Shown: in pieces, positions 17,305 to 64,000 of the stretch
How positions within the stretch are numbered: position 1 is the stretch's first letter
Layout: each line of letters opens with the position of its first letter
Assembly: GCA_044237915.1 (NCBI GenBank)
Contig: JBIIEI010000012.1
Span: 15,360-79,359 of the forward strand
Reading direction: 5' to 3'
From: Silvanigrellaceae bacterium
GTDB taxonomy: Bacteria > Bdellovibrionota_B > Oligoflexia > Silvanigrellales > Silvanigrellaceae
DNA length: 64,000 bases
Notes under the pieces: generated by a model
Database searches by the model: none
What the model was told of the DNA's origin: nothing
What the model saw: only the letters and a program-made list of their open reading frames with translations
Program-made: the position numbers and the translations under genes

Positions 17305-18684
17305 CTACACTCGTTCGGATTCTGCTTCTTTCAACGATGCAATCTCAGAAAGCGCAATGACTTCGAGCTCCTGTGCCATCTGCCTGATTCTCACAATGTC
17401 AGGTCCCTCTATTGTAATACGGGCGACCGCCTCGGTGCCACTGTAACGAAACAAAACTCGCCCCGCATGGCTCAGTTCCTGTTCAAATTCTCGAATGCGT
17501 GCATTGAGTTTGACAAGCTTATCAACGGGGGGCTTAAACAGCACCTTCACATTACGTAACAACTGGGGAACCTTTTGCATGACCCCCGAAAGTTCTGAAA
17601 CCGATTTTGCGCGTCGCAGCATCATCTCTAAAACCTTGAGTGCGGCAATGATGGCATCGCCCGTGGTGCTCGAATCAAGGAACAGGATATGCCCCGATTG
17701 CTCACCGCCCAAAATGATGTTTCGTTTTCGCATTTCTTCGACAACATGACGATCTCCAACGGGCGTGCGATAAACATCGATGCCCGCTTTTTTCATCGCC
17801 ACATCCAACCCTCGGTTGCTCATCACGGTGGCCACGATGGCACTTCCATCAAGTTGCCCCGTGGCCTGCATTTCCACAGCACACATGGCAATGATTTGAT
17901 CGCCGTCGAGGACATTTCCTTTTTCATCGACAACAATGAGCCTGTCTGCATCTCCGTCTAAAGCAAATCCGATATTGGCTCGGTACTTTAAAACTTCCGA
18001 CTGCAAATACTGTGGATGCAATGCGCCTGAATCGAGGTTGATATTAAATCCATTAGGCTCATCATTGATGCAAAAAACCTCGGCACCCAGTTCCGAAAAA
18101 ACCTTGGGGGCAACCTTGTAACCCGCACCGTTGGCGCAGTCGACAACGATACGCACGCCATCGAGTTTCAATGATTTTGGAAAGCGTTCCTTTAAGAACA
18201 CGGCATATTGTCCAATGGCATCTTCGATGCGCCTTGCGCGTCCCACCAACGAAGCAGGTGCAAGTCTGGACTCCAGGGTTGGATCGTCTATCAATTTTTC
18301 GATGTACTCTTCCATGAGATCAGGAAGTTTGAAGCCATCTTTATCAAAAAATTTAATTCCATTGTCCTGGTACGGATTGTGACTGGCCGAAATCATCACT
18401 CCCGCCGTGGCACGCATTCCTCGGGTCAGGTAGGCCACGCCAGGGGTTGGAAGGGGGCCCACAAATAAAACATCGGCGCCCACACTGCACAACCCGGCAG
18501 AAAGAATTCCTTCCACCATATAGCCACTCACGCGGGTGTCTTTGCCAACAATGACTTTGGGTCTTTCCACTTTGTCACGCAACGCCAAGCCAAACGCTTG
18601 GCCAATGCGAAGAATCATGGAAGGAGTCATTGCGCCGACATTGGCTTCTCCCCGTACACCATCTGTCCCAAAATACTTACCCAT
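17305..18684 (-). CDS. glmM: Phosphoglucosamine mutase
   Basis: N-terminal MGKYFGTDGVRG; phosphoserine loop SASHNPYQDNGIKFF. Confidence 0.9.
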   Translation of the reverse strand: MGKYFGTDGVRGEANVGAMTPSMILRIGQAFGLALRDKVERPKVIVGKDTRVSGYMVEGILSAGLCSVGADVLFVGPLPTPGVAYLTRGMRATAGVMISASHNPYQDNGIKFFDKDGFKLPDLMEEYIEKLIDDPTLESRLAPASLVGRARRIEDAIGQYAVFLKERFPKSLKLDGVRIVVDCANGAGYKVAPKVFSELGAEVFCINDEPNGFNINLDSGALHPQYLQSEVLKYRANIGFALDGDADRLIVVDEKGNVLDGDQIIAMCAVEMQATGQLDGSAIVATVMSNRGLDVAMKKAGIDVYRTPVGDRHVVEEMRKRNIILGGEQSGHILFLDSSTTGDAIIAALKVLEMMLRRAKSVSELSGVMQKVPQLLRNVKVLFKPPVDKLVKLNARIREFEQELSHAGRVLFRYSGTEAVARITIEGPDIVRIRQMAQELEVIALSEIASLKEAESERV

Positions 18685-18717
18685 AATTATTTTTCCCTGA
18701 CACCATTCTGTATCTTG

Positions 18718-19665
18718 TTACTTTACCAACTGAACCGACACCTGATCGGGGTTGACGCTGACGAGGCTTGTGTTGGGTGGAATCTTGAGCAAAACTTTGC
18801 GTTCTTGCCATCCCGATTCCAGGCGCGAAGCATCAACGAAGGCACGCACATCCGTCGACTTCAAGGCATCAATGACTTCCTTTTGTCCCTGAAGCTCAAT
18901 GTCAATGCTTGCCGGACGAATCTGCAGTTCCTCCGTCGAAAGAACTTCGATGGGAATTCCCCGAAAGAGTTTCATCGCTTTTTTCTGTCCGACAATCACC
19001 TGGACGTTGATTTTATCATCATTGACTTTCATCGACGAAAAGTCTTCCAGTACAAGCTTGGTGATCACCGAAAAATTCTTGTCGATCTCTTGAATATTAA
19101 TCGGACTCGTGGAAAGCATTTCGACCTTTGAAAGCTCGCGCTGCGCCCCCACCACTTCCACTTCACTTGGCTCAACAATAACCTTTTCGACTTCAAGCCC
19201 TTCGGGAGGTGGACCTTGCAACACGGCACGCACGGCAACGCGCTTTCTGATGACGTGATCGAGTTCAATTTCGACGCTGGGATCGGGGATGACGAGCCTA
19301 TAGCGCTTGTCGAGGTTTGGAAAATTTTCTTTTGTCACTTTAACTCTGAGCTTGCCAATTTTTTCAGGGCTGACATCCAACACGCCTACAAGCTGTTCAT
19401 CCGAAGGAGGTTGCGAAAAAAGGGTGTTGGGAAGCCTCACTGTGACGTCGATGGCGCGCTCGGGGGAACCGACCACCATCACATTGGCTGCAGTAATAAT
19501 TTTAACGCGCGCAACTTTCGAATATTCACGCACCTGTTCTGAACGCACAATCATGTAAAGTACGATGGCAAATATGAGTGAAATGAGTTTCAGCCACCCG
19601 TTGTGGGTAAAGAATCTGAAAACTCCACGCACGGCAGAAGGTGATTCACTTGGCGACCAATCCAC
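18718..19665 (-). CDS. cdaR: CdaA regulatory protein CdaR (YbbR-like repeats)
   Basis: N-terminal TM helix then repeated YbbR-like beta-rich modules; sits between cdaA and glmM, the conserved cdaA-cdaR-glmM arrangement. Confidence 0.65.
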   Translation of the reverse strand: MDWSPSESPSAVRGVFRFFTHNGWLKLISLIFAIVLYMIVRSEQVREYSKVARVKIITAANVMVVGSPERAIDVTVRLPNTLFSQPPSDEQLVGVLDVSPEKIGKLRVKVTKENFPNLDKRYRLVIPDPSVEIELDHVIRKRVAVRAVLQGPPPEGLEVEKVIVEPSEVEVVGAQRELSKVEMLSTSPINIQEIDKNFSVITKLVLEDFSSMKVNDDKINVQVIVGQKKAMKLFRGIPIEVLSTEELQIRPASIDIELQGQKEVIDALKSTDVRAFVDASRLESGWQERKVLLKIPPNTSLVSVNPDQVSVQLVK

Positions 19666-19685
19666 TATTCCCTACCTTCCTTCTT

Positions 19686-21113
19686 TCAACGTCGCTTTGT
19701 TTCGTTATTTAAGTTCGAGGGCTCCACCAGAGGAGGCTCCAACGAAACACCGCCAATCGATACATTTTGTGGCGGGGGAATCGGAGCATCGGGCGGATTG
19801 AATTTATCCTCGGGACCCAGTTGAACCAAGCCCTTCAGCGCTTCATTTTCCATCATCCCCTCGGTCAGACCATCGTTGCGGTCTTTTTGAGAATGCTCCA
19901 CGATTTCATCGTCGAAATCATCGCTCAGCACAGTGCCTAAAATCATTTCATCCATCATGCGCCCCGAGCGATTAAAGGACAGGGGATCGCTGCGACGATT
20001 GCCGCCCTTGCGCATTCCCGAGCCTTCGGAGCCTGTGGCACGCGTAGAATCTCCACTGCTGCTCAAAATAAGATTCGTGCCATCGGCTTTTGCGATCTTA
20101 ATTGGAGAGCTTGATGGAAAGCGCAGGCTTAAACGAGATTCCGTTGAGGCCAGCTTATTTTCGAGTTCTACATCCGAAACGGTGTTGCGGTGTGCGGAGT
20201 CTGTTTCGTAACGTCTGTCTACTTTAGGTCTGCGCCGCTCATTGCCCAAGTAAATACGTCTCGAACGAAACATATTCACAATGCGCAAGCTAAAGGCATT
20301 CATTTTTCGAAACAAAGAGCGCTCGATGGCGCGGGCAAACTGACCGCGATCCTGCGAAGGAAGTAACAAAGAGACCAGCAGTCGCCGGGCAGACTCTGCG
20401 GAATTTTGCACTTGCAGAGCACCTTCCCAGGCCAACGAAATTGTCCCGGTTTCTTCGCTCACCACAAGAACAACGGCATCGGTTTCCTCAGAAATCCCCA
20501 CCGCTGCACTGTGCCGGGTTCCCAGCTTTTTTCCTAGTCTTTGATTTTTAGACAAGGGTAAATGTGCAGAGGCGCAGGACAACCGATTTTTTTGCACGAT
20601 CACGGCACCATCGTGGAGCGGCGAAAAGGATTGAAAGATGCACACCAAGAGTTGTTCAGAAACCAAGGCATCCACTCGCACACTGTGATCATACAAGCGC
20701 TCGAGGCCAATGCTGCGCTCAAACACAATGATGGCGCCAATGCGATCGTGACTGAGATTTTTAGCGGCACTCACCACTTCGTCGATGACCCGAAGTCCTG
20801 AGCTTTCATCCAATCCCGAAACAAAGGGACTGCGTCCAAACCTTGTGAGCAGACGCCTGATGTCGTCTTGAAACAAAACGATGACGACAATAATAAATGA
20901 TGAGTAAAACTTACTGATAATCCAGTTGAGAGTTTCGAATTCTAACAGGCTCGACAAAATATAGGCAATAAAAATCACCAGCATCCCAATGAGGATTTGG
21001 GCTGCTCGCGTGCCTTTCAGGATGGCAATGATCTGATAAAGAAGCATTGCCACCAGTGAAATATCCAAGATGGATCGCAGGGTGAGCTGCGCAAAAAATT
21101 CTTTGAGATTCAT
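19686..21113 (-). CDS. cdaA: Diadenylate cyclase CdaA with a long low-complexity C-terminal extension
   Basis: Three N-terminal TM helices; DAC domain motifs (DGAIIV, HLPLSKNQRLGKKLGTRHSAAVGISEETDAVVLVVSEETGTIS). The ORF continues ~190 aa beyond the DAC domain into an S/R/D/E/P-rich tail. Confidence 0.8.
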   Translation of the reverse strand: MNLKEFFAQLTLRSILDISLVAMLLYQIIAILKGTRAAQILIGMLVIFIAYILSSLLEFETLNWIISKFYSSFIIVVIVLFQDDIRRLLTRFGRSPFVSGLDESSGLRVIDEVVSAAKNLSHDRIGAIIVFERSIGLERLYDHSVRVDALVSEQLLVCIFQSFSPLHDGAVIVQKNRLSCASAHLPLSKNQRLGKKLGTRHSAAVGISEETDAVVLVVSEETGTISLAWEGALQVQNSAESARRLLVSLLLPSQDRGQFARAIERSLFRKMNAFSLRIVNMFRSRRIYLGNERRRPKVDRRYETDSAHRNTVSDVELENKLASTESRLSLRFPSSSPIKIAKADGTNLILSSSGDSTRATGSEGSGMRKGGNRRSDPLSFNRSGRMMDEMILGTVLSDDFDDEIVEHSQKDRNDGLTEGMMENEALKGLVQLGPEDKFNPPDAPIPPPQNVSIGGVSLEPPLVEPSNLNNETKRR

Positions 21114-22583: not shown

Positions 22584-23604
22584 CCTGCAAGGTCACTGGA
22601 GTGACTTCCAGTTCCACTGATTTTTCAGAAACTAATTTGCGTGGCGCTTGTGCGAGCATGGTTCCACCGATGAGCCCTAAAAAGGAAACAAGGTGGATCA
22701 CAGAAGGCACCTTTCCTCCCAGAGATGAACAGAGCAGCAATGTCAAAAGAAAAGTCGAAGTCCAGGTGCACGAAACTACGCTGGATGGAAGCACGCGGCT
22801 CGCTTGCCCCAGCCACAAAAATCGATACGACATTGCCACCATTCCAAAGACAATAAAGGGCATAACGCTTGTTAAGCTCAAATTCAAATCGTTCGCCTGG
22901 GCCGAAAAAACCCGCAGGGTTCCAAAAAAGACAACTTGTAGAACAGCCATCGCAGGAAGTGTGATAAAAACCGCCCCCAATGACGCCCATGACCAATAGC
23001 TTGCGGCGGGAAATCCATGGGCTGCAGGCGTAAAGAGCGAAAATGCAAGGGCCCAACTCACGCTTCCTAAAAACACCAAAGCATCAGAAAGGAAGTGCGG
23101 ATTCAAACTCAAAATCTGTTCACTGTCTGAAAGTGCTGCAAAGGGATCGCACACCATCCAAAAGGCGCACACGGCAACCCCTAAGAGCATGCCGATGCGC
23201 TGGCTTAATGTAACATCTTCGTTGCAAATCAAGCGCCGCCCCGCAAGGACAGCTATCGGGCCAAAAGCCAGAAAAATCCCCGCACTGAGAGGGCTGGAGC
23301 CCAAGCACACGCCCAGGATCGACAATGAGATTCCCACTGACAAAAAGAATGCCGACAGCACGATGGAGCGCACCTGCTCTCTGCGAAAGTAAATGGAAAA
23401 TCCGAGATCGCGAATGTTACGTAAATTATAAAGAAACATCCCCGACACCATGGCCACTGCCACAGCAGCAAACGGGGAAAGCCCTAAAGACGCCCCGAAG
23501 GAAATCGCCACCATCGTGAGTGCATACAGAAACCCAAAAGTTCCAGCAGAGCACCATGCGGTGTATTGAGCAAGCCTGCGACCCTTCATGCTAGTTGACT
23601 CCAA
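22570..23604 (-). CDS. Integral membrane protein, probable DMT/EamA-like transporter
   Basis: ~10 predicted TM helices in two repeated halves; no catalytic motifs. Confidence 0.4.
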   Translation of the reverse strand: MESTSMKGRRLAQYTAWCSAGTFGFLYALTMVAISFGASLGLSPFAAVAVAMVSGMFLYNLRNIRDLGFSIYFRREQVRSIVLSAFFLSVGISLSILGVCLGSSPLSAGIFLAFGPIAVLAGRRLICNEDVTLSQRIGMLLGVAVCAFWMVCDPFAALSDSEQILSLNPHFLSDALVFLGSVSWALAFSLFTPAAHGFPAASYWSWASLGAVFITLPAMAVLQVVFFGTLRVFSAQANDLNLSLTSVMPFIVFGMVAMSYRFLWLGQASRVLPSSVVSCTWTSTFLLTLLLCSSLGGKVPSVIHLVSFLGLIGGTMLAQAPRKLVSEKSVELEVTPVTLQVANI

Positions 23605-23674
23605 TCACAAGACAAGAGAAGAATTTCTTGAAAGCAAACGTCTGACAACGGCACGCGTAGCAAAAGGTATAACC

Positions 23675-25300
23675 ATGCGCCACAAAAAAACGCCCCTCCA
23701 GCAGGGCGTTCCAAGTTTCAGCAAAAAACCCGTGTTAAGTTGTTTCTTTTTTTTGGTGTCGCTTCCTTCGTGCGGATATTTTCGCTCGGAATTTTTGGAA
23801 AAAGGCGACCCCCTGATTCCAAGCTTACAGCGTCAAGATTTTTCATCTGAGCTTCAACCTGTAGACTTAATTAAAGATACAGAAAACGACCTAGCTGACG
23901 ATCGCGCAGCCGCACAAGCCACATTGAAAAGCGCTGGAGTGGTGCGAGAAACTCTTGTTGAAGGAGACAAAGCACAAAGGGAGATCTCTGAAATCTTGAG
24001 GACTTCTGGAATTCCCGAACTTTTGGCAACAGCGCCTGCACGCCCAGCTCAGGAGGACATTGAAAAAGCCAGAGTTCTTGAGGCACAGCGGGTTAAACAG
24101 GAATTTGATCTCAAGGATGCCGCAGAACTCGAAGCAAAACTCGCTGAATTCAAACCTCGTCCGGAAAAAATCCTTACCGTAACAACACTTTCGAATCCCC
24201 TTTTCGACCGCGTTGTTACAAACGTAAAGACACTCTCTCCATCTCGTTTTCCTAAGATCTATGCTGCTCCATTAAAGCTCTACGCCCCTGCTGGGGAACT
24301 CGTTCGCAATGCCGAAGGCGAACCCACTCTGGGAGCTGCCGATCATTTTCGCAAGATGGGGGCCAACTCCCCAAGGGAAATCTTGCTCCACGAATCCTTT
24401 GCCATGAAGGAATTGGGCGTCTATGCGCGATCCTTCTATAAGAGTGATGCCGAGTTTTTTCAGACCGCACTCCAGTGTGTCCATGCCACCCCCCTCCTGG
24501 ACGATGGATCCAAAGCGGGGGATTCCGTGGTGTGGGCGCGCGCCTTTGTGTGGGAGCGCAGTACGCGGGTTGGAGGTGGAATTTCTCGCCATAGCCTTCG
24601 AAACGTGCTGTTAAAAGATGGCCTTCTCAAAGCAGAAGGGCAGTCTCAATCTTATGCTCCCGTCATCACCCACGCGGAAGCCGTCGAAAGGGTGCGCGTC
24701 ACCAATAAAAATTCACTTATCGATGCCGTTGTGGCGCGCCTGCAACACGATGGAACACAGTCACAGCATATTTCTCGTTACTTTCGTGACTCTGGGGGAC
24801 TTTACCTATCACGTTTTTTTGGATTTACACAAAACCCCACAAGCTACAAACGCACTTTCGCGACCTTTCAAACGAGCTTCAACAAGCAATTTTTTGAAAT
24901 TACGGGTGAACGGACCAATGTGGGCACCGTCGAACCCTTATCTGCAAAGCAAAAAGAGTGGCTCGATTTTCTTGAAAAGAAAAAAGAGTGGACCGAAAAG
25001 CTGCCGGGAAGCCGATGGCTTTCAACGTTTCCCTTTCGCCGAGAAAACTTCGATGGCAACAGCCCTTTGCCCGGCCAAAACAAAGACTTTGAAAAAGGCG
25101 GGATCCACTTCATCGATCCCAAGGCAGAAACCTTTGAAAGCAACTATTTCGATTTTTTAGTGAGCTCCCCGGCACAAGGTTTTGTTACTTTTGCAAACGT
25201 GCTTCCTCCGCTCACGCAGTCCGACAAATCCGATGCCGCCGATGCGATCTGCCAAGCCGCTTTTGTGCAGGCACTCCCTGCCGCTGTATCCGTGCCATAA
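23675..25300 (+). CDS. Large hypothetical lipoprotein
   Basis: ATG 23675 with AAAAGG RBS; signal peptide with lipobox-like LPSCG; 540 aa with no recognisable domain. The ORF track opens upstream at 23588. Confidence 0.5.
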   Translation: MRHKKTPLQQGVPSFSKKPVLSCFFFLVSLPSCGYFRSEFLEKGDPLIPSLQRQDFSSELQPVDLIKDTENDLADDRAAAQATLKSAGVVRETLVEGDKAQREISEILRTSGIPELLATAPARPAQEDIEKARVLEAQRVKQEFDLKDAAELEAKLAEFKPRPEKILTVTTLSNPLFDRVVTNVKTLSPSRFPKIYAAPLKLYAPAGELVRNAEGEPTLGAADHFRKMGANSPREILLHESFAMKELGVYARSFYKSDAEFFQTALQCVHATPLLDDGSKAGDSVVWARAFVWERSTRVGGGISRHSLRNVLLKDGLLKAEGQSQSYAPVITHAEAVERVRVTNKNSLIDAVVARLQHDGTQSQHISRYFRDSGGLYLSRFFGFTQNPTSYKRTFATFQTSFNKQFFEITGERTNVGTVEPLSAKQKEWLDFLEKKKEWTEKLPGSRWLSTFPFRRENFDGNSPLPGQNKDFEKGGIHFIDPKAETFESNYFDFLVSSPAQGFVTFANVLPPLTQSDKSDAADAICQAAFVQALPAAVSVP

Positions 25301-49079: not shown

Positions 49080-51125
49080 ATGAAACATTCGTCTTTCTTG
49101 CTTGTTATGAATTTTCTTCTCTTTGGAACAAATTCATGCAGCGCACCTCATTTTGCAGGCAAGGAAACAAAAACGCTTTCATGGAATCAAAGTCAACAGG
49201 ATGTCCAGGTGGACGAGTTCATTAAAAACACCTGTGCTGAGATTGAATCATTCGCTCTGACTGCTGATTTAAAGCTGACCGATGACATTCAAAAAATGTT
49301 AAACTTGAGCGAATTCTTGCAGGAAAAATTTCCATATCTTTCTGAAAAAAAATTAAGTGACAAAGATTTTACAGTCCCCACTGCACTCTGTTTACATAAT
49401 ATTTCAAAAATCATTCTTCAAAAACTTGATCAATATCCGGAAACCGCACTTGAAAATCAGAAAAAATTAATTGCAAAACTTCTGACACTGACTTCTGTCA
49501 ATGCATCTAAGCTCAACCTGTATGCTCGCAAAGTTTTTAATGCCATTCCTCTGTCTGAGCTTTTGCAAGATGCCGCTTTAAGAGATGCCTTTTCAGCACT
49601 TCATATGGATTCTTCACTTGAAGAAATTGCAAATTGGCTTAAAGGACAAGACGTCGAAAAAATTGACCAAGCCGCACTTTTAAAACTTGGATTATTCGCA
49701 TCAAACTCGCACATCAATGATGTTCACAATCCCTATTCGTTTCTTGAAAAATACTCCTCTTTCGTCATAAGCCAATCAAATGCGGCTCAACAACATCTTA
49801 TGCTACAATTGGTGAGCAACCACCTCCTAACAAATGGAGTCATTTTCTCCAGTCGCGGCAAAGAAACTCAAGAAAAATTACTGTTGCGGGTGCTTCAGTC
49901 GCTGCAAAAAAAACTCTCAAAACTTGAAAAAGAGTCCCCAGAATACGACACGACTCTGCAATACATCGCAGAATATAATAAAATTCTAGAAGAAATTCGT
50001 GCGATTCCTTATTCCCTTGGCACCATGTATGCAAAACTCGCAGAAAGCCTGCGTGAAAAAGGCATGACCAATGCTGATTTTAGAGTCAATGAAGCCAAAG
50101 AAAGTTCGCGCATCTTGCTTGAAAAAGGTTACCCCCACAAAGGACTCCTCCTTCAAGAGGGTGATATTTGGCTGGTGGTGAGCCAAAACGGCCCTGGAGA
50201 TCTCTTTTCTAATCTTGCTGCCCTTCCAGACTTCGTCACACATTCGGGCGTGATCGCTTCCGACTGGGAAGATGGAATGCGGTATTATTTTCGGGCAGAA
50301 ATTTCTGACGGGCCTACAGTCAGTGCCATTGATACCTCTTTTCATACCGTGTTTGTGCGTCCCACATTCCCTGTTGCTCCAGGAGCAACGACACAAGCTC
50401 TGCAAAATTTAGCGCGTTACCCTAAAGTCCTCTTCGATGTGGGATTTCAAGAGGGGCTTTTCGATAAAAAAGGGAATGTCAGTGTTTATTGTTCAGAGTT
50501 TGTTCACTTTCTTTTTCAGAACAAGTTTCAACCGGATTTGGGGCCTTTTCCATCTCCATTTGATGGAACACGCACACGCCTTCATATTACGAACCCCGTG
50601 ACTTATCGCAATGGCATGCGTTTGGGTTTTCCCGTTGGCGCACAGGTATTTATTCCCGACACCTTTCTTTATTCCCCCTCTACACAAATCTTGGGTGCGT
50701 TCCTCACCGAAACAGTTCCCATTTCAAAAACAAACGATGATTTGGAACTCTTTATTGCAGAGATGAGGGGCAAATTTAACGATGAATTTGCACAACTTTT
50801 TCACGCAAAGGACATGAAAGAAGTTTCTTACTGGGAGAAGAGATCCTTAGATGTGTACTTGATAGGTCGGGAGCTTTCTGAATGGTTCCCATTCTTGGGT
50901 AAGAAACTTCCCCAGGCGGGCATGAATTCCCTAAATCTTCCTGATGGTGAAGCGAAGTATCACATGCTGAATTTCTTTCGAGTTTATGCAGCATTTAATA
51001 CGAGCCTTGAAAATATAGGGCGGCAAGATGCAAATGGAGCTTTTGGAGCAGAATGGAAAGAACTCTATTTGCAACGCTATCAAGAAACGATTGTTCCCTT
51101 AATGCACGCCCTTTTTCAGGATTAA
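49080..51125 (+). CDS. Large secreted protein with central YiiX/DUF830-like permuted papain-fold (NlpC/P60 superfamily) domain
   Basis: GAGGAGG RBS; signal peptide. Ordered matches to E. coli YiiX: EGDIWLV (cf. TGDIIFQ), THSGVIAS (cf. SHTGMLV), YCSEFVHFLFQ (cf. YCSEVVWKVYQ). N-terminal ~330 aa helical, C-terminal ~200 aa unknown. Confidence 0.55.
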   Translation: MKHSSFLLVMNFLLFGTNSCSAPHFAGKETKTLSWNQSQQDVQVDEFIKNTCAEIESFALTADLKLTDDIQKMLNLSEFLQEKFPYLSEKKLSDKDFTVPTALCLHNISKIILQKLDQYPETALENQKKLIAKLLTLTSVNASKLNLYARKVFNAIPLSELLQDAALRDAFSALHMDSSLEEIANWLKGQDVEKIDQAALLKLGLFASNSHINDVHNPYSFLEKYSSFVISQSNAAQQHLMLQLVSNHLLTNGVIFSSRGKETQEKLLLRVLQSLQKKLSKLEKESPEYDTTLQYIAEYNKILEEIRAIPYSLGTMYAKLAESLREKGMTNADFRVNEAKESSRILLEKGYPHKGLLLQEGDIWLVVSQNGPGDLFSNLAALPDFVTHSGVIASDWEDGMRYYFRAEISDGPTVSAIDTSFHTVFVRPTFPVAPGATTQALQNLARYPKVLFDVGFQEGLFDKKGNVSVYCSEFVHFLFQNKFQPDLGPFPSPFDGTRTRLHITNPVTYRNGMRLGFPVGAQVFIPDTFLYSPSTQILGAFLTETVPISKTNDDLELFIAEMRGKFNDEFAQLFHAKDMKEVSYWEKRSLDVYLIGRELSEWFPFLGKKLPQAGMNSLNLPDGEAKYHMLNFFRVYAAFNTSLENIGRQDANGAFGAEWKELYLQRYQETIVPLMHALFQD

Positions 51126-57860: not shown

Positions 57861-58691
57861 TTACGAAGCTTTCCTACCCAGGGGTACGATGCGTGGGAAG
57901 TTTGCTTCAGCTGATTTTCGCAATGACTGTGGAGTACGCCCCTGAAGAATGGGGCAGCGCTGTTCTGCATCACTTGCGACGGGGCGCATTTCTAAGGGGA
58001 CATTGACCGACAAAACTAAGTTCACAAGCCCATTCAACAAAAAGCGCAGGGCCATTTTAATTTCGCCCGCTTGCGCTGGAATGGCACACATCTCGCCAAT
58101 GAGATTGAGATCCGATTTTTCGAGCGCCGCTTCCCAAGCCTCTCCCAGTGTGGGCTTCGACATATCCAGAGAGCCAATGAGGTAAACATCATTTGACGCC
58201 GCATCGAGCATCCCAAATTTCAGTTCCAAAGCGTGCTGACCTTGCCCTATAACAGGATGCAGGTCGTGAAAAACGAAAAAACTCCAAGAATCAAAAGGTC
58301 CATTTTCAAGCGCATCTTTTTCAACTTCAAAAACCAAGCATGAGTGAGGAAAATTCAAATGCGTCGGAGAAATCTCGCGCGGCCAACGGGCGTCCAACTG
58401 GGCATCCCAGAAATTTCGTTCAAGTTCATACACAACCTTGTGTGAGCGATAGGCCGCATAAGCCGAAAACGTTGTTGAGATACGGCGCAAGATGTAGTCT
58501 TCATCCTTTCCAAAAAGCTGTTTGCCTTCAAAATGACTTAAAAGATCGATCCCCGGCAAAGGGATCTCTGCAGGCAGTTCGATTCCATGGGCAAGACAAA
58601 GAGCACGCGCCTCAGCCTCAAGGCTTTCCAGTTTGCCTTGCTCTAAGTTCCAAAACGAGCGCCAGCAGTTTTCAACCGATGGTAATTTCAT
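57861..58691 (-). CDS. Hypothetical protein
   Basis: GGAGG RBS 4 nt upstream of ATG 58691; 276 aa; no motifs. Confidence 0.45.
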   Translation of the reverse strand: MKLPSVENCWRSFWNLEQGKLESLEAEARALCLAHGIELPAEIPLPGIDLLSHFEGKQLFGKDEDYILRRISTTFSAYAAYRSHKVVYELERNFWDAQLDARWPREISPTHLNFPHSCLVFEVEKDALENGPFDSWSFFVFHDLHPVIGQGQHALELKFGMLDAASNDVYLIGSLDMSKPTLGEAWEAALEKSDLNLIGEMCAIPAQAGEIKMALRFLLNGLVNLVLSVNVPLEMRPVASDAEQRCPILQGRTPQSLRKSAEANFPRIVPLGRKAS

Positions 58692-58843
58692 GATTCCTCC
58701 GAAAACCAGGGTCCCTCGACTTATTTTCGGAAAAAGGGTGAATCCCCTTGAGTGCCAGAATGCAGTCACACCCTGCAATTAAGTACGTGTTAGTGTATCT
58801 GTACTTTTTGCTCGAACGGCGCATTCTGAAGAAAGGAACCTGC

Positions 58844-60309: not shown

Positions 60310-60528
60310 ATTGTTTCTTTAAAGCTGGAATACTCGTCAACTCAATCTCCGCACCTCACCCTCTTAAATGCGCAGTTTCCATCTTTTCTTTTTGAGCGAT
60401 TAAAAAAAACATTCCATTTAAAAATCCTGCAAGTCGAAGGACAAATTTACTGCGCCCTTCAATATAATTTCACTTGAGCTATTATCGATGCAGAATTTTT
60501 GTTCCTTTTCCATCGGAGGAGATCAGTC

Positions 60529-62436
60529 ATGTTTTATCGTAATCAAAGTCCTCATTCCTCAGATTTATCAACTCAGGGAGAAGGGAATCCCAGTTGGGAT
60601 CTCACGTCGATTTACACTCACTTTGAAGACCATAAAATAGATTCTGATTTTTTCGATGCCTATCGAGTCATCGAAGAAATAAAACATTCAAATAAAGTGC
60701 TGATTTCGGGAATTGAAAATGGAGATCTCCAAAATTCAGAGCTCGCAGCGGAGTTCACCAGCTTAGTTACCCAAACGTACCTGAAAGTGGACAAATTGAT
60801 CACACTTGCAGATCTCTTTTACCACTATGCTTCCATGCATCTTTCAACCGATGGAAACAACAGCGAGGCAAAGGCTCTCCGCATCAAAGCGCTTTCACTC
60901 TTGACCATTATCGAAGAGGAAAAGGTTCCCCTTAAAATGGCGCTCACAAGAGCACCAGATGCTTTTCTGGAACAATTGCTCTCCATCCCCGAAATGAAAC
61001 CGTTTAAATTTGATGTGCAGAGGCAAAGACAAGTTCGCGAGAATCTCTTGACCCTTCAAGAGGAACGCCTCCTGGCTTCGTTCTCAGATTCAGGCCATCA
61101 GGCTTGGGGAATTCTTTATACTAGCTTGGCCTCATCCATCCGCTGCACACTTCGTGTGCCAGAAAAGGCAGAACAAGAGGTGAGCCTCGCAGAAGCCAGT
61201 CAATACCTTTATGGAGGCAATGAGCCCCTGCGCAAAGCAGCTTGGACCGCCATCAATAAGGGTTGGGGCCAGCATCGAGAAACCTGCGCAGCCATCCTGA
61301 ATGCCTTGGCAGACTGGCGCATTACGGAAGATAAAAAACGCTCTCACACAAAAACTGTCCACTTTTTAGATGCAGCACTCCTTGAGAACAGATTGAGCCG
61401 CGAAACCCTTGAGGCCATGTTCTCGGTTGTTGCTCAGGCGAAAGAACTCGGACAAAAATTCAATCGATTGAGAGCCCGCATTCTGGGCAAAGAAAAACTC
61501 GATCCCTGGGATCTCCAGGCCGCCCCACCTGCTCGATTAAACAAAGCAACAAATCAAACATACTCTTTTAGCGAAGCCATAGAGATCATCAAAAAACCAC
61601 TTCAAAAGATAGATCCAGAATTCCCACAATTTATTGATACCCTGTGCCAGAAAAAATGGATTGAAACAGGAACGACAGGCGCACGAAGTGCAGGGGCGTA
61701 TTGCGTTCTACTGTCCCATATTGGTCAGACGCGAGTTTATATTCCCTTTCAAGGGGGACTCGGACACATCAAAACCCTTGCTCACGAATTGGGTCATGCC
61801 TTTCACAACAGCACGGTATTTGACCTTCCAACGATTGAACAGATTTATCCGAATACTCTTGCAGAGACCGCAAGCATGTTTATGGAAACAACGGTGCTCA
61901 AAGACCTCATTTCGCAAGAAGTCGATCTGTCCGAGCGTTTAAAAATGTGCTGGACAGAAGCCGAAATGGCCACCACCAATCTTTTGAATATCCCAAGCCG
62001 TTTTTACTTTGAATCCAAACTGTATGAGCAAAAGAATTCGAAAAGTTATTCTCCTGATGAACTCAGCACCATGATGAAAAATGTGTGGGAAGAATGGTAT
62101 GGCGACACCCTCACACAAATGGATGACATGCTCTGGTGCAGTAAACTACATTTCTACAAAACATATCAAAGATTCTACAACTTCCCCTACACGTTTGGGT
62201 ATCTGTTTAGTCTTGCACTTGTCGACCTCCAAGAAAAAAAACCAGAAGAATTCTTCCCCCGCTTCAAAGACCTGCTCAAAAATACAGGCCGCATGACAGT
62301 CGAAGAACTGGTGAGTTTACACCTTGGAGAAGACACCACGTCAACCTCCTTTTGGCAGAAGAGCATTACCATACTTGAAAAGAAAGCCGATGTTTTTGAA
62401 CAGTCCATAGATGCCTGGCTTGCATTAAATTCTTGA
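60529..62436 (+). CDS. pepF: Oligoendopeptidase F (M3B family)
   Basis: HEXXH zinc motif (AHELGHAFH) in M3 context; GGAGGA RBS before ATG 60529. Confidence 0.85.
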   Translation: MFYRNQSPHSSDLSTQGEGNPSWDLTSIYTHFEDHKIDSDFFDAYRVIEEIKHSNKVLISGIENGDLQNSELAAEFTSLVTQTYLKVDKLITLADLFYHYASMHLSTDGNNSEAKALRIKALSLLTIIEEEKVPLKMALTRAPDAFLEQLLSIPEMKPFKFDVQRQRQVRENLLTLQEERLLASFSDSGHQAWGILYTSLASSIRCTLRVPEKAEQEVSLAEASQYLYGGNEPLRKAAWTAINKGWGQHRETCAAILNALADWRITEDKKRSHTKTVHFLDAALLENRLSRETLEAMFSVVAQAKELGQKFNRLRARILGKEKLDPWDLQAAPPARLNKATNQTYSFSEAIEIIKKPLQKIDPEFPQFIDTLCQKKWIETGTTGARSAGAYCVLLSHIGQTRVYIPFQGGLGHIKTLAHELGHAFHNSTVFDLPTIEQIYPNTLAETASMFMETTVLKDLISQEVDLSERLKMCWTEAEMATTNLLNIPSRFYFESKLYEQKNSKSYSPDELSTMMKNVWEEWYGDTLTQMDDMLWCSKLHFYKTYQRFYNFPYTFGYLFSLALVDLQEKKPEEFFPRFKDLLKNTGRMTVEELVSLHLGEDTTSTSFWQKSITILEKKADVFEQSIDAWLALNS

Positions 62437-62651
62437 AGGGCATGACTTCAAATCTGACTTTCACTGTTCCAAGAGATCGTCATTGTAAAAAATTGTTCTC
62501 ACTCTCCAAAAAAATGTCCATCGACTTCTATTGGACTTCCCCTGCTAGAAAAAGCTCTTCTGGCAGAAGCTCCTGTTTCTCCCAGTTCCCGCGAAATTTT
62601 TCCTACTGTCCCAAGCCAAGAAATTAAAAGTTTTGCTCCTCTTGCAAATAA

Positions 62652-62948
62652 AAACACTTCCACGCAAATATTGCCAAACGGGTATTAGATGGTGCTGTTC
62701 CTTCAAAAGCTGGAAATGGCACTGGCCCTACACGGAAGTATGACAAGGACGGAGGGCAAGAGGCAAAAGACAGAGATTTCGAAAAAATAGATGGAACGGC
62801 AGTAGAAGTAAAAGAGGGAGTTTGGGTTAAAACTTTGCCAGATGGAACGAAAGTGGTATCGAGAAACTGGTCAACTGAGGACGGCAAACCTACGTTCGAA
62901 ATTCAGCCTCCCGAAGGCAAAGAAAGAATAAAAATAAGGTATCATTAG
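62652..62948 (+). pseudogene. Start-less 99-codon open frame: possible 3' remnant of a toxin-like gene, translationally coupled to the next gene
   Basis: Frame 0 is open from the TAA at 62649 to the TAG at 62946, with no ATG/GTG/TTG in the first 61 codons. Translation is protein-like (…GTGPTRKYDKDGGQEAKDRDFEKIDGTAVEVKEGVWVKTLPDGTKVVSRNWSTEDGKPTFEIQ…KIRYH). The stop is 1 nt before the ATG of 62950. Confidence 0.25.
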
Positions 62949-62949
62949 G

Positions 62950-63375
62950 ATGTTTAAACCTTGGCCAACTCCATTTGAAAATGAAAAACACCTCGTTGTG
63001 GACGGAATTATTCAGCTTGATTGCAAAATTTATTTCGTACTCTGTTCAGATGAAAAAAATTATCTTATAGAATCTAAAAGAAAGTATCCTTATCGCATTA
63101 TGGATGAATCATACGCTTACATAAAGGATGAAATAGAAGAAGGATACATCGCAAGAACAAAAAGCTCAGTTGCGGAGGACTCGGCTTTTTTACAACTCCT
63201 TTGCAGCAATGCAATTTTTAATTCGGAGCATCAAAATAATCCTTTTAAGCATTATTTGATACGAGCATCGGATGAAGTTATTAATTTAGTATCAGACGAA
63301 GAACCCCTCGTTTCGATTTTTTCCGATCCAACGGGTGAGTTTTTGCGTAATCTTATTTTACGTAACAAATTTTAA
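62950..63375 (+). CDS. Small cytoplasmic hypothetical protein, paralog A (immunity-protein-like)
   Basis: 141 aa; AT-rich; shares PWxTxFxNEK, PYRIMDxSYAY, AEDSxF, NPFKHY and LVS motifs with the adjacent gene. Confidence 0.55.
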   Translation: MFKPWPTPFENEKHLVVDGIIQLDCKIYFVLCSDEKNYLIESKRKYPYRIMDESYAYIKDEIEEGYIARTKSSVAEDSAFLQLLCSNAIFNSEHQNNPFKHYLIRASDEVINLVSDEEPLVSIFSDPTGEFLRNLILRNKF

Positions 63376-63404
63376 GACTAATTTAATAATGAAAATAAGG
63401 TGCA

Positions 63405-63842
63405 ATGAATATCTTTAATCCTTGGAAAACATTGTTTTCAAATGAAAAAAATCTACAAGTTGATGCGGTTTTACAGTTTGGATATCACCTCAATATCGTT
63501 CTTAAATCTGGAGAAACTAGGTATCATATAGAATCGAACAGACGTCATCCGTATCGCATCATGGATAAATCCTATGCATATTTAGGTGCAGAAAATGAAG
63601 AGGGCCGCAATACTACCACAAATTGCTCATTTGCAGAGGATTCCGTTTTCATAAAATTGCTCAGTAGCGATCCCATGTTTAGCATGGAACATGAAGACAA
63701 CCCTTTTAAGCATTATGTAATCAAAACTCAAGATGAGATCATAGATTTGGTTTCAAATGACGCACCTGTTGTTACCATACTTACCGAGTCAACAGAAAAT
63801 TTTTTGTGCCAACTTCTATTGATAAATGAGAATTTAGATTAG
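63405..63842 (+). CDS. Small cytoplasmic hypothetical protein, paralog B (immunity-protein-like)
   Basis: 145 aa; roughly 40-45% identical by eye to paralog A along its full length; same AT-rich context. Confidence 0.55.
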   Translation: MNIFNPWKTLFSNEKNLQVDAVLQFGYHLNIVLKSGETRYHIESNRRHPYRIMDKSYAYLGAENEEGRNTTTNCSFAEDSVFIKLLSSDPMFSMEHEDNPFKHYVIKTQDEIIDLVSNDAPVVTILTESTENFLCQLLLINENLD

Positions 63843-64000
63843 GGTACTGAGGTGCAAAATTGTGCTGCAAGGAGAACTTTATGAAAACTGAAGTCATGAC
63901 ACCACCAGCAGAGCTGGTGGTTTGAATTCGTGAACCGCTCAAAGCGGTTTATTGGGAGTCGCAATTCTTGCGACGTGATTTGTTACCTCTGCTTACGCAG

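Follow-up and report, generated by a model that had tools for sequence, protein, structure and literature searches.

We found that positions 62652-63842 of the 64,000-nucleotide stretch of Silvanigrellaceae DNA analysed here (the window) very probably form an orphan polymorphic-toxin cassette that was acquired horizontally beside pepF, the gene for oligoendopeptidase F. According to this reading, a toxin tip lacking both its carrier and a start codon is followed by ORF1, which encodes the cognate immunity protein, and by ORF2, a duplicate of ORF1.

ORF1 (62950-63375) and ORF2 (63405-63842) lie on the + strand, begin with ATG and encode acidic proteins of 141 and 145 aa, with pI values of 4.97 and 4.84, respectively. 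The initial annotation described them as co-oriented ORFs that align along their full length, and pairwise BLASTP agreed: 70 of 140 positions are identical (50%) and 70% are positives, in a gapless alignment with an E value of 2e-50. The two genes are paralogous, ORF2 being a diverged tandem duplicate of ORF1. Among the motifs listed in that annotation, ES.R..PYRIMD.SYAY, AEDS.F..LL, EH..NPFKHY.I and E.I.LVS are present in both ORFs; its N-terminal motif was one position out of register, and the true form is PW.T.F.NEK.L.VD...Q. The pair is also AT-rich relative to its neighbours, as had been claimed, with a GC content of 0.340 in ORF1 and 0.349 in ORF2 versus 0.450 in pepF and 0.457 in the whole window. 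Both proteins have polar N-termini, and a search for a signal peptide, a hydrophobic leader or a transmembrane-grade segment found none in either; the Kyte-Doolittle mean over 19 residues peaks at 1.49 in ORF1 and at 1.31 in ORF2, in keeping with the earlier statement that signal peptides are absent. The 29-nt spacer between the genes (63376-63404, + strand) is AT-rich (GC 0.241) and contains, as read from the sequence, a Shine-Dalgarno-like AAGGTG 5 nt upstream of the ORF2 ATG; no toxin fragment precedes ORF2 in this spacer. Downstream of ORF2 we noted a 14-codon ORF (63882-63926, MKTEVMTPPAELVV) and, at 63958-63974, a terminator-like hairpin with a T-rich tail behind it, the terminator count not exceeding shuffle expectation. 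Since GC content returns to 0.47 at 63843-64000, beyond ORF2, the AT-rich insert appears to end at approximately 63842.

On the other side of the pair, pepF (60499-62436, + strand), an M3-family peptidase gene (Pfam Peptidase_M3, E 3.6e-16; Peptidase_M3_N, E 6.7e-11), marks the left edge of the native DNA, and the cassette starts after it. A non-coding junction of 215 nt (62437-62651) follows; three-frame translation revealed no start-bearing long ORF in it, and it does not resemble the toxin carriers described below. Beyond the junction, an open frame of 297 nt on the + strand (62652-62948, including its TAG stop) ends in ...TFEIQPPEGKERIKIRYH-TAG, and a single nucleotide separates the stop from the ORF1 ATG. 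Within this frame lies a complete toxin domain of about 85-88 aa (62682-62945, VLDGAV...KIRYH), which matches the toxin-family profile with an E value of 2.3e-28 (hmmsearch) and is 43% identical to the last 80 aa of a 3305-aa CdiA protein of Pantoea (E 2e-15). The initial annotation had placed a toxin-module remnant next to the pair, and the open frame at 62652-62945 plus TAG, 1 nt before the ORF1 ATG, is that remnant. Its only in-frame starts are TTG 62835 and GTG 62853, both within the domain, and none lies upstream of residue 52 of the domain. Because these starts are so deep inside the frame, the full toxin domain cannot be translated. The GC content of the cassette, 0.34-0.35 versus 0.457 for the window, suggests that it is of foreign origin and was acquired horizontally. 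Within the 64-kb window we found no secretion system or full-length toxin, and no homologue of the L001 carrier (below), Tn3 transposase or Tn3-related DNA.

The missing part of the toxin was recognised from two other contigs. When ORF1 alone was searched against 5.8 billion clustered proteins, the closest relative was a 99% identical copy on a 1335-bp metagenome contig (L001), and this ORF1-only search returned nothing else. From position 62680 onward, the window and L001 align without gaps over 800 nt with 6 differences (99.25% identical). The toxin-domain DNA is 100% identical, ORF1 carries four differences, of which two are non-synonymous (Y46C and A106T), and ORF2 carries two, both synonymous; the ORF1-ORF2 arrangement of the window is also found in L001. 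Upstream of the equivalent of 62680, the DNA of L001 is unrelated to that of the window, and the same toxin domain is encoded in frame at the 3' end of a longer toxin ORF, which is truncated by the contig edge and covers at least 267 aa. A second contig, L105, contains a complete 351-aa carrier protein and an immunity gene. Its version of the carrier-borne toxin is 63% identical, and the last 90 aa of the 351-aa protein are 69% identical to the window toxin domain. The carrier part (about 260 aa; L105:3282-4337, L001:1-534) contains a strongly hydrophobic two-lobed segment (Kyte-Doolittle 19-residue mean of 2.45 at residue 188 in L105) followed by a helical charged stretch, and it matched no Pfam family and no PDB sequence. 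Because the tip is fused to a carrier in L001 and L105 and the upstream DNA of the window is unrelated, the window locus represents a toxin tip with immunity genes but without the carrier.

L105 also bears on which of the two paralogues is the partner of the toxin. The ORF1-like gene that follows the L105 toxin matches the family profile (E 7e-17) and is 33% identical to ORF1, whereas ORF2 gave no BLASTP match to the L105 immunity fragment at E<=10. ORF1 is thus probably the cognate immunity protein, since it adjoins the toxin tip and is similar to the immunity gene of L105, and ORF2 may cover a variant toxin. In L105, a Tn3-family transposase gene (PF01526, PF13700) ends 3 nt before the 351-aa toxin gene (L105:289-4704), and GC content, which is 0.50 in the toxin gene, drops to 0.34 in the immunity gene; the L105 toxin-immunity pair looks like transposon cargo.

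The state of the window copy raises the question of whether the cassette is a decaying relic, with immunity genes that are present by descent and are no longer expressed or selected in this host. Carrier and start codon are both missing from the toxin frame, and ORF1, which has no well-spaced Shine-Dalgarno sequence of its own, was probably translationally coupled to the toxin across the 1-nt gap, so that its ribosome-binding context is poor if that frame is not translated. A scan for promoters and terminators gave counts at shuffle level with no promoter-like excess, and is uninformative; half of the ORF1 differences from L001 are non-synonymous. However, both ORFs are intact and retain the near-invariant residues of their family, no invariant residue is missing from the toxin domain, which does not differ from that of L001, AAGGTG provides ORF2 with a good Shine-Dalgarno sequence, and no terminator-like site was found between pepF and ORF1, so that read-through transcription is possible. 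We therefore regard a relic as quite unlikely.

Both proteins of the cassette belong to families that are absent from the curated collections. The immunity family was found only by an exhaustive profile search of 1.84 billion representatives, which returned 18 proteins of 114-175 aa. A profile of those 18 recovered 74 immunity clusters, all annotated 'hypothetical', which include members from Pantoea, Exiguobacterium, Cytobacillus, Nostoc and an Omnitrophica MAG; their common features are W5, ..YR..E(S/E)Y.. and ..KHY.I.T.DdVIEvlS...P. ORF2 matches the immunity-family profile with an E value of 2.9e-29 (hmmsearch), and a scan of GTDB representative genomes with a profile of the two paralogues found no relative. 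On the toxin side, a three-sequence profile recovered 47 clusters of short or partial sequences, with members in Yersinia, Salmonella, Rahnella, Lelliottia and Clostridiales. Across 31 sequences, the invariant or near-invariant toxin residues, counted from 62682, are G24, F33, D54, G55, R61, S64, P70, T71, E73, K84, R86 and Y87. The window copy keeps all family-invariant residues, and none of the conserved positions among the 31 members is a histidine.

ORF1, ORF2 and the toxin remnant have no match in Pfam, NCBIfam or PHROGs, and 19 family members scanned against curated profiles gave scattered chance matches only (E>=0.037). Precomputed Pfam assignments are blank for all 74 immunity and 47 toxin clusters, with the exception of one HIT-domain fusion, and single-sequence and profile searches of PDB sequences gave chance matches only for both families. 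P0059, a 253-aa member of the immunity family, carries the HIT-family domains PF11969 and PF01230, a nucleotide-hydrolase fusion that may hint at the chemistry of the toxin. From these results, we conclude that the toxin and immunity proteins are a new, unnamed family pair within a well-known kind of system. Elsewhere in the window, two further + strand ORFs have no Pfam match at E<=1e-5 (49080-51125, 681 aa; 23588-25300, 570 aa), and a 305-aa ORF on the - strand (57861-58778) has none at E<=1. The region 17305-21113 (- strand) contains a gene for a 474-aa CdaA-type diadenylate cyclase with a long C-terminal extension, which adjoins glmM, and a 315-aa ORF (18718-19665) lies between the diadenylate cyclase gene and glmM. 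Among GTDB representatives, GlmM is most similar (77%) to that of a MAG whose Betaproteobacteria label is doubtful, with only 54% for the runner-up, so the window derives from a lineage that has been little sampled.

The initial annotation suggested immunity proteins, and the neighbourhoods of homologues agree with this proposal. The toxin domain forms the extreme C-terminus of several unrelated carriers: CdiA in Pantoea and Duffyella, RHS/YD proteins in Bradyrhizobium, Lactococcus and Enterococcus, MafB in Neisseria, and the 351-aa protein of L001 and L105. In Pantoea agglomerans, a 128-aa immunity-family protein (P0086) is encoded 6 nt after the 3305-aa CdiA, which has TPS, Fil_haemagg repeat and PT-VENN domains; that is, it occupies the CdiI position. 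Similarly, the gene of the family member P0087 in Cytobacillus firmus comes 11 nt after a toxin tip that had not been called as an ORF. The C. firmus tip and immunity gene (L015:5000-6399) come directly after genes for a phage holin and an N-acetylmuramoyl-L-alanine amidase, the latter seemingly frameshifted, and this cassette sits at the edge of a prophage lysis cassette.

Eight additional loci were reached from the toxin side only and were then examined for immunity genes. These are Yersinia intermedia (L096:1961-5645), Rahnella aquatilis (L099:1198-5675), L098, Duffyella (a plasmid hemagglutinin-repeat CdiA protein), Lactococcus raffinolactis (a 3056-aa RHS-repeat protein), Enterococcus raffinosus (an RHS/YD protein), Neisseria gonorrhoeae (MafB-CT) and Bradyrhizobium (a 4172-aa RHS protein). 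The Yersinia and Rahnella loci are long CDI orphan arrays, in which PT-VENN with a barnase-type Ribonuclease/Barstar pair and Ntox25 cassettes precede the toxin tip and its immunity gene; in the Rahnella tip, the N-terminal half has been replaced. All of the toxin-side loci except Bradyrhizobium gave immunity-profile matches, with E values of 1e-32 to 4e-6 (hmmsearch). In total, 12 of 13 distinct loci (the window, L001, L105, Pantoea, C. firmus and the eight toxin-side loci) have an immunity homologue directly downstream of the toxin domain on the same strand, with gaps of -4 to 45 nt. The thirteenth, Bradyrhizobium, shows the C-terminal motif only, a weak match (hhalign E 0.001, probability 21%).

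Toxin identities and immunity-protein identities, compared pair by pair, rise and fall together (Mantel r 0.73, p 0.001), with faster divergence on the immunity side. This toxin-then-immunity adjacency together with co-variation is the defining anatomy of a polymorphic toxin C-terminal/immunity pair. Thus, the frame upstream of ORF1 is a full toxin domain whose relatives are followed by homologues of ORF1 and ORF2 in nearly every locus, eight of which were found without reference to the immunity genes, and the survey of homologues for neighbouring toxin domains favours the immunity reading. What the initial annotation called an array, or immunity island, is smaller: one orphan cassette with a duplicated immunity gene, and no large island.

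The setting of some relatives in mobile DNA might instead point to an addiction or stabilisation module, resembling a toxin-antitoxin system and serving a mobile element rather than interbacterial competition. Consistent with such a role, the 351-aa toxin and its immunity gene in L105 directly follow a Tn3-family transposase gene, the window cassette has a foreign GC content, and the C. firmus copy has genes for a phage holin and an amidase as neighbours. The domain, however, is the C-terminal tip of the secreted delivery proteins CdiA, Rhs/YD and MafB, which is the signature of exported toxins, and the gene order is toxin first, immunity second. Moreover, the window copy is unable to make toxin, and its host therefore cannot be addicted. 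An addiction element is accordingly a highly improbable account of the locus.

Not every member of the immunity family is linked to a toxin. About six distant members are solo, with no toxin domain within 6 kb and in some cases with housekeeping genes around them, and their sites include the interval between lspA and lgt (L003), a position after serS in Nostoc (L008), one after a dienelactone hydrolase gene (L002), a mobile element (L005) and Exiguobacterium (L013). The initial annotation stated that homologues consistently found in housekeeping contexts would argue against an immunity function; such contexts were not the rule among the homologues, but the solo members do touch on this point. 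They admit the possibility that the family of ORF1 and ORF2 has a general cytoplasmic role that has nothing to do with toxins, such as that of a nucleic-acid mimic or a regulator, and that the adjacent toxin fragment is incidental. The window pair groups with the solo genes in a crude NJ tree, and the fusion of P0059 to HIT domains would also fit a general role. Nevertheless, a family member lies immediately downstream of the toxin domain in 12 of 13 loci, which represent five or more phyla and include loci reached from the toxin side only, and the L105 immunity gene, a solo-like sequence type close to P0014, is toxin-linked. The Exiguobacterium solo gene adjoins a WapI-like immunity gene, and polymorphic toxin systems often include orphan immunity genes that have no toxin (Poole et al. 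2011, PMC3150448). We therefore consider a general, toxin-unrelated family very unlikely. One other solo homologue (L006:5482-6411) lies 3 nt after an unannotated 171-aa ORF and approximately 1 kb upstream of genes for a LodA-type L-lysine oxidase and its flavoprotein partner, a different antimicrobial system.

Structural models are in line with the reading of ORF1 as an immunity protein. The AlphaFold2 model of the toxin domain (pLDDT 88, pTM 0.76) has a beta-alpha-beta5 topology, and ORF1 was modelled with a pLDDT of 89 and a pTM of 0.85. The predicted toxin and immunity structures separately match the two chains of the PT7-PIM7 complex (8OWU), a modest, fold-level match; that both partners would correspond to the two chains of one toxin-immunity complex is consistent with the proposed roles. 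PT7 is a Mg-dependent DNase of Bacillus cereus, fused to an LXG domain and with catalytic residues D37/H47/H73, and PIM7 is its immunity protein (Nachmias et al., bioRxiv 10.1101/2021.10.19.465003). The two systems share a charge pattern of basic toxin and acidic immunity protein (bioRxiv 10.1101/2021.10.19.465003). In contrast, the PT7 catalytic site has no equivalent in the window toxin family, which lacks a conserved histidine, and the carriers differ, LXG for PT7 versus CdiA, Rhs/YD, MafB and the 351-aa protein for the window family. At the sequence level, when two profiles and one toxin sequence were compared with every PDB chain sequence at E<=10, 8OWU was not among the matches. The DNase activity of PT7 consequently cannot be transferred to the window toxin domain.

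The toxin domains mostly have pI values of 9-10, the window copy being near neutral over 88 aa, and the immunity proteins are all acidic (4.2-5.9). A basic toxin with an acidic inhibitor is the usual pattern for nuclease toxins. Because the toxin is mostly basic, its immunity partner is acidic and the fold is PT7-like, a nucleic-acid target is suggested; that the toxin is a nuclease acting on DNA or RNA is a tentative proposal, to which we give slightly less than an even chance. Its invariant residues D54, R61, S64, T71, E73, K84, R86 and Y87 look more like the set of a metal-independent RNase than like the Asp/His metal site of PT7.

Two other toxins from the same study were compared with the family. 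PT4 also occurs on ESPR/CdiA carriers in Pantoea, Yersinia and Salmonella, but it is a 149-aa helical, membrane-acting toxin that resembles complex I membrane subunits (bioRxiv 10.1101/2021.10.19.465003), and identity with the beta-rich window domain was ruled out. The Neisseria member is not PT2, as the PT2 peptides GKIWVGEG and LSIDGTR, deduced from mutagenesis primers, are absent from the N. gonorrhoeae MafB-CT. Table S3 of that work (bioRxiv 10.1101/2021.10.19.465003) contains two failed candidates, from Rahnella (98 aa) and Salmonella enterica (77 aa), that resemble the window toxin family in size and hosts (e.g. P0126, Rahnella, 97 aa). If these belong to the same family, cytoplasmic expression of the toxin in Escherichia coli may be non-toxic.

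Foldseek also matched the toxin domain to teneurin with E values of 0.03-0.1, a similarity of fold only for which the aligned teneurin residues were not reported; no teneurin match was found at the sequence level. The match appears to fall on the antibiotic-binding-domain-like (ABD) segment rather than on the YD beta-hairpins. The teneurin ABD, of approximately 120 aa, lies downstream of the YD shell (Jackson et al. 2018, PMC5851990; PMC6425310). Unlike the window toxin domain, it is not terminal and has no known toxic activity (PMC5851990; PMC6425310). A more far-reaching proposal is that the domain founds an unrecognised, histidine-less class of toxins with invariant D, R, S, T, E, K, R and Y residues, homologous to the ABD of metazoan teneurins, which would be a fossil of it; in the lineage of the window the domain would be carried by a new kind of short 351-aa protein with an internal hydrophobic hairpin and mobilised by Tn3-type transposons. 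We consider this unlikely as a whole.

Taking the locus as an orphan toxin-immunity cassette, we propose that ORF1 and ORF2 would act as cytoplasmic proteins that bind and block a toxin domain injected by a competitor, possibly by capping the conserved polar patch of the incoming toxin. ORF1 would cover the cognate toxin variant and ORF2 a diverged one, such that the cell would be protected without making toxin. Since no toxin can be translated from the resident copy, the cassette is limited to defence or to passing on its tip through recombination, and the silent copy could serve as a reservoir for such exchange.

With this assignment, two anonymous ORFs and an unannotated stretch become a defined toxin-immunity family pair that spans Pseudomonadota (Enterobacterales, Neisseria, Bradyrhizobium), Bacillota (Lactococcus, Enterococcus, Cytobacillus) and an undersampled environmental lineage. 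It also yields an annotation rule, namely a tip of the form '...LPDGRTV.VR..S.DGRPTLEI....IK.RY' followed by an acidic protein of 125-160 aa. The compact pair is suited to experiment, the two paralogues offer a natural case for studying immunity specificity, and the resemblance in structure to PT7-PIM7 and the teneurin ABD offers a testable clue to how those folds arose.

A framework for polymorphic toxin systems is attributed to Zhang et al. (2012). Among curated Imm, Ntox and SUKH families, neither window family has a counterpart in Pfam or NCBIfam. The closest parallels are the orphan CdiA-CT/CdiI and Rhs-CT/RhsI modules, in which a toxin tip that lacks carrier and start is likewise followed by a co-oriented immunity gene (Poole et al. 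2011, PMC3150448). The window cassette shares their anatomy: no start precedes 62835, homology to L001 begins at the domain boundary at 62680, and ORF1 and ORF2 are intact. It differs from them in following pepF rather than a cdiBAI, rhs or maf locus, and in having no VENN or Rhs-core demarcation motif before the domain; TPS, haemagglutinin and PT-VENN domains had no match among the window ORFs scanned, and a CDI-locus context is found only for relatives in Pantoea, Yersinia and Rahnella. Further differences are that two immunity paralogues follow one toxin tip and that the most similar full-length carrier, of 351 aa, contains a hydrophobic segment in its interior. As a kind of system, an orphan toxin tip with immunity genes is ordinary and well known; the two immunity paralogues per tip, the short 351-aa carrier and the Tn3 linkage are the unusual features.
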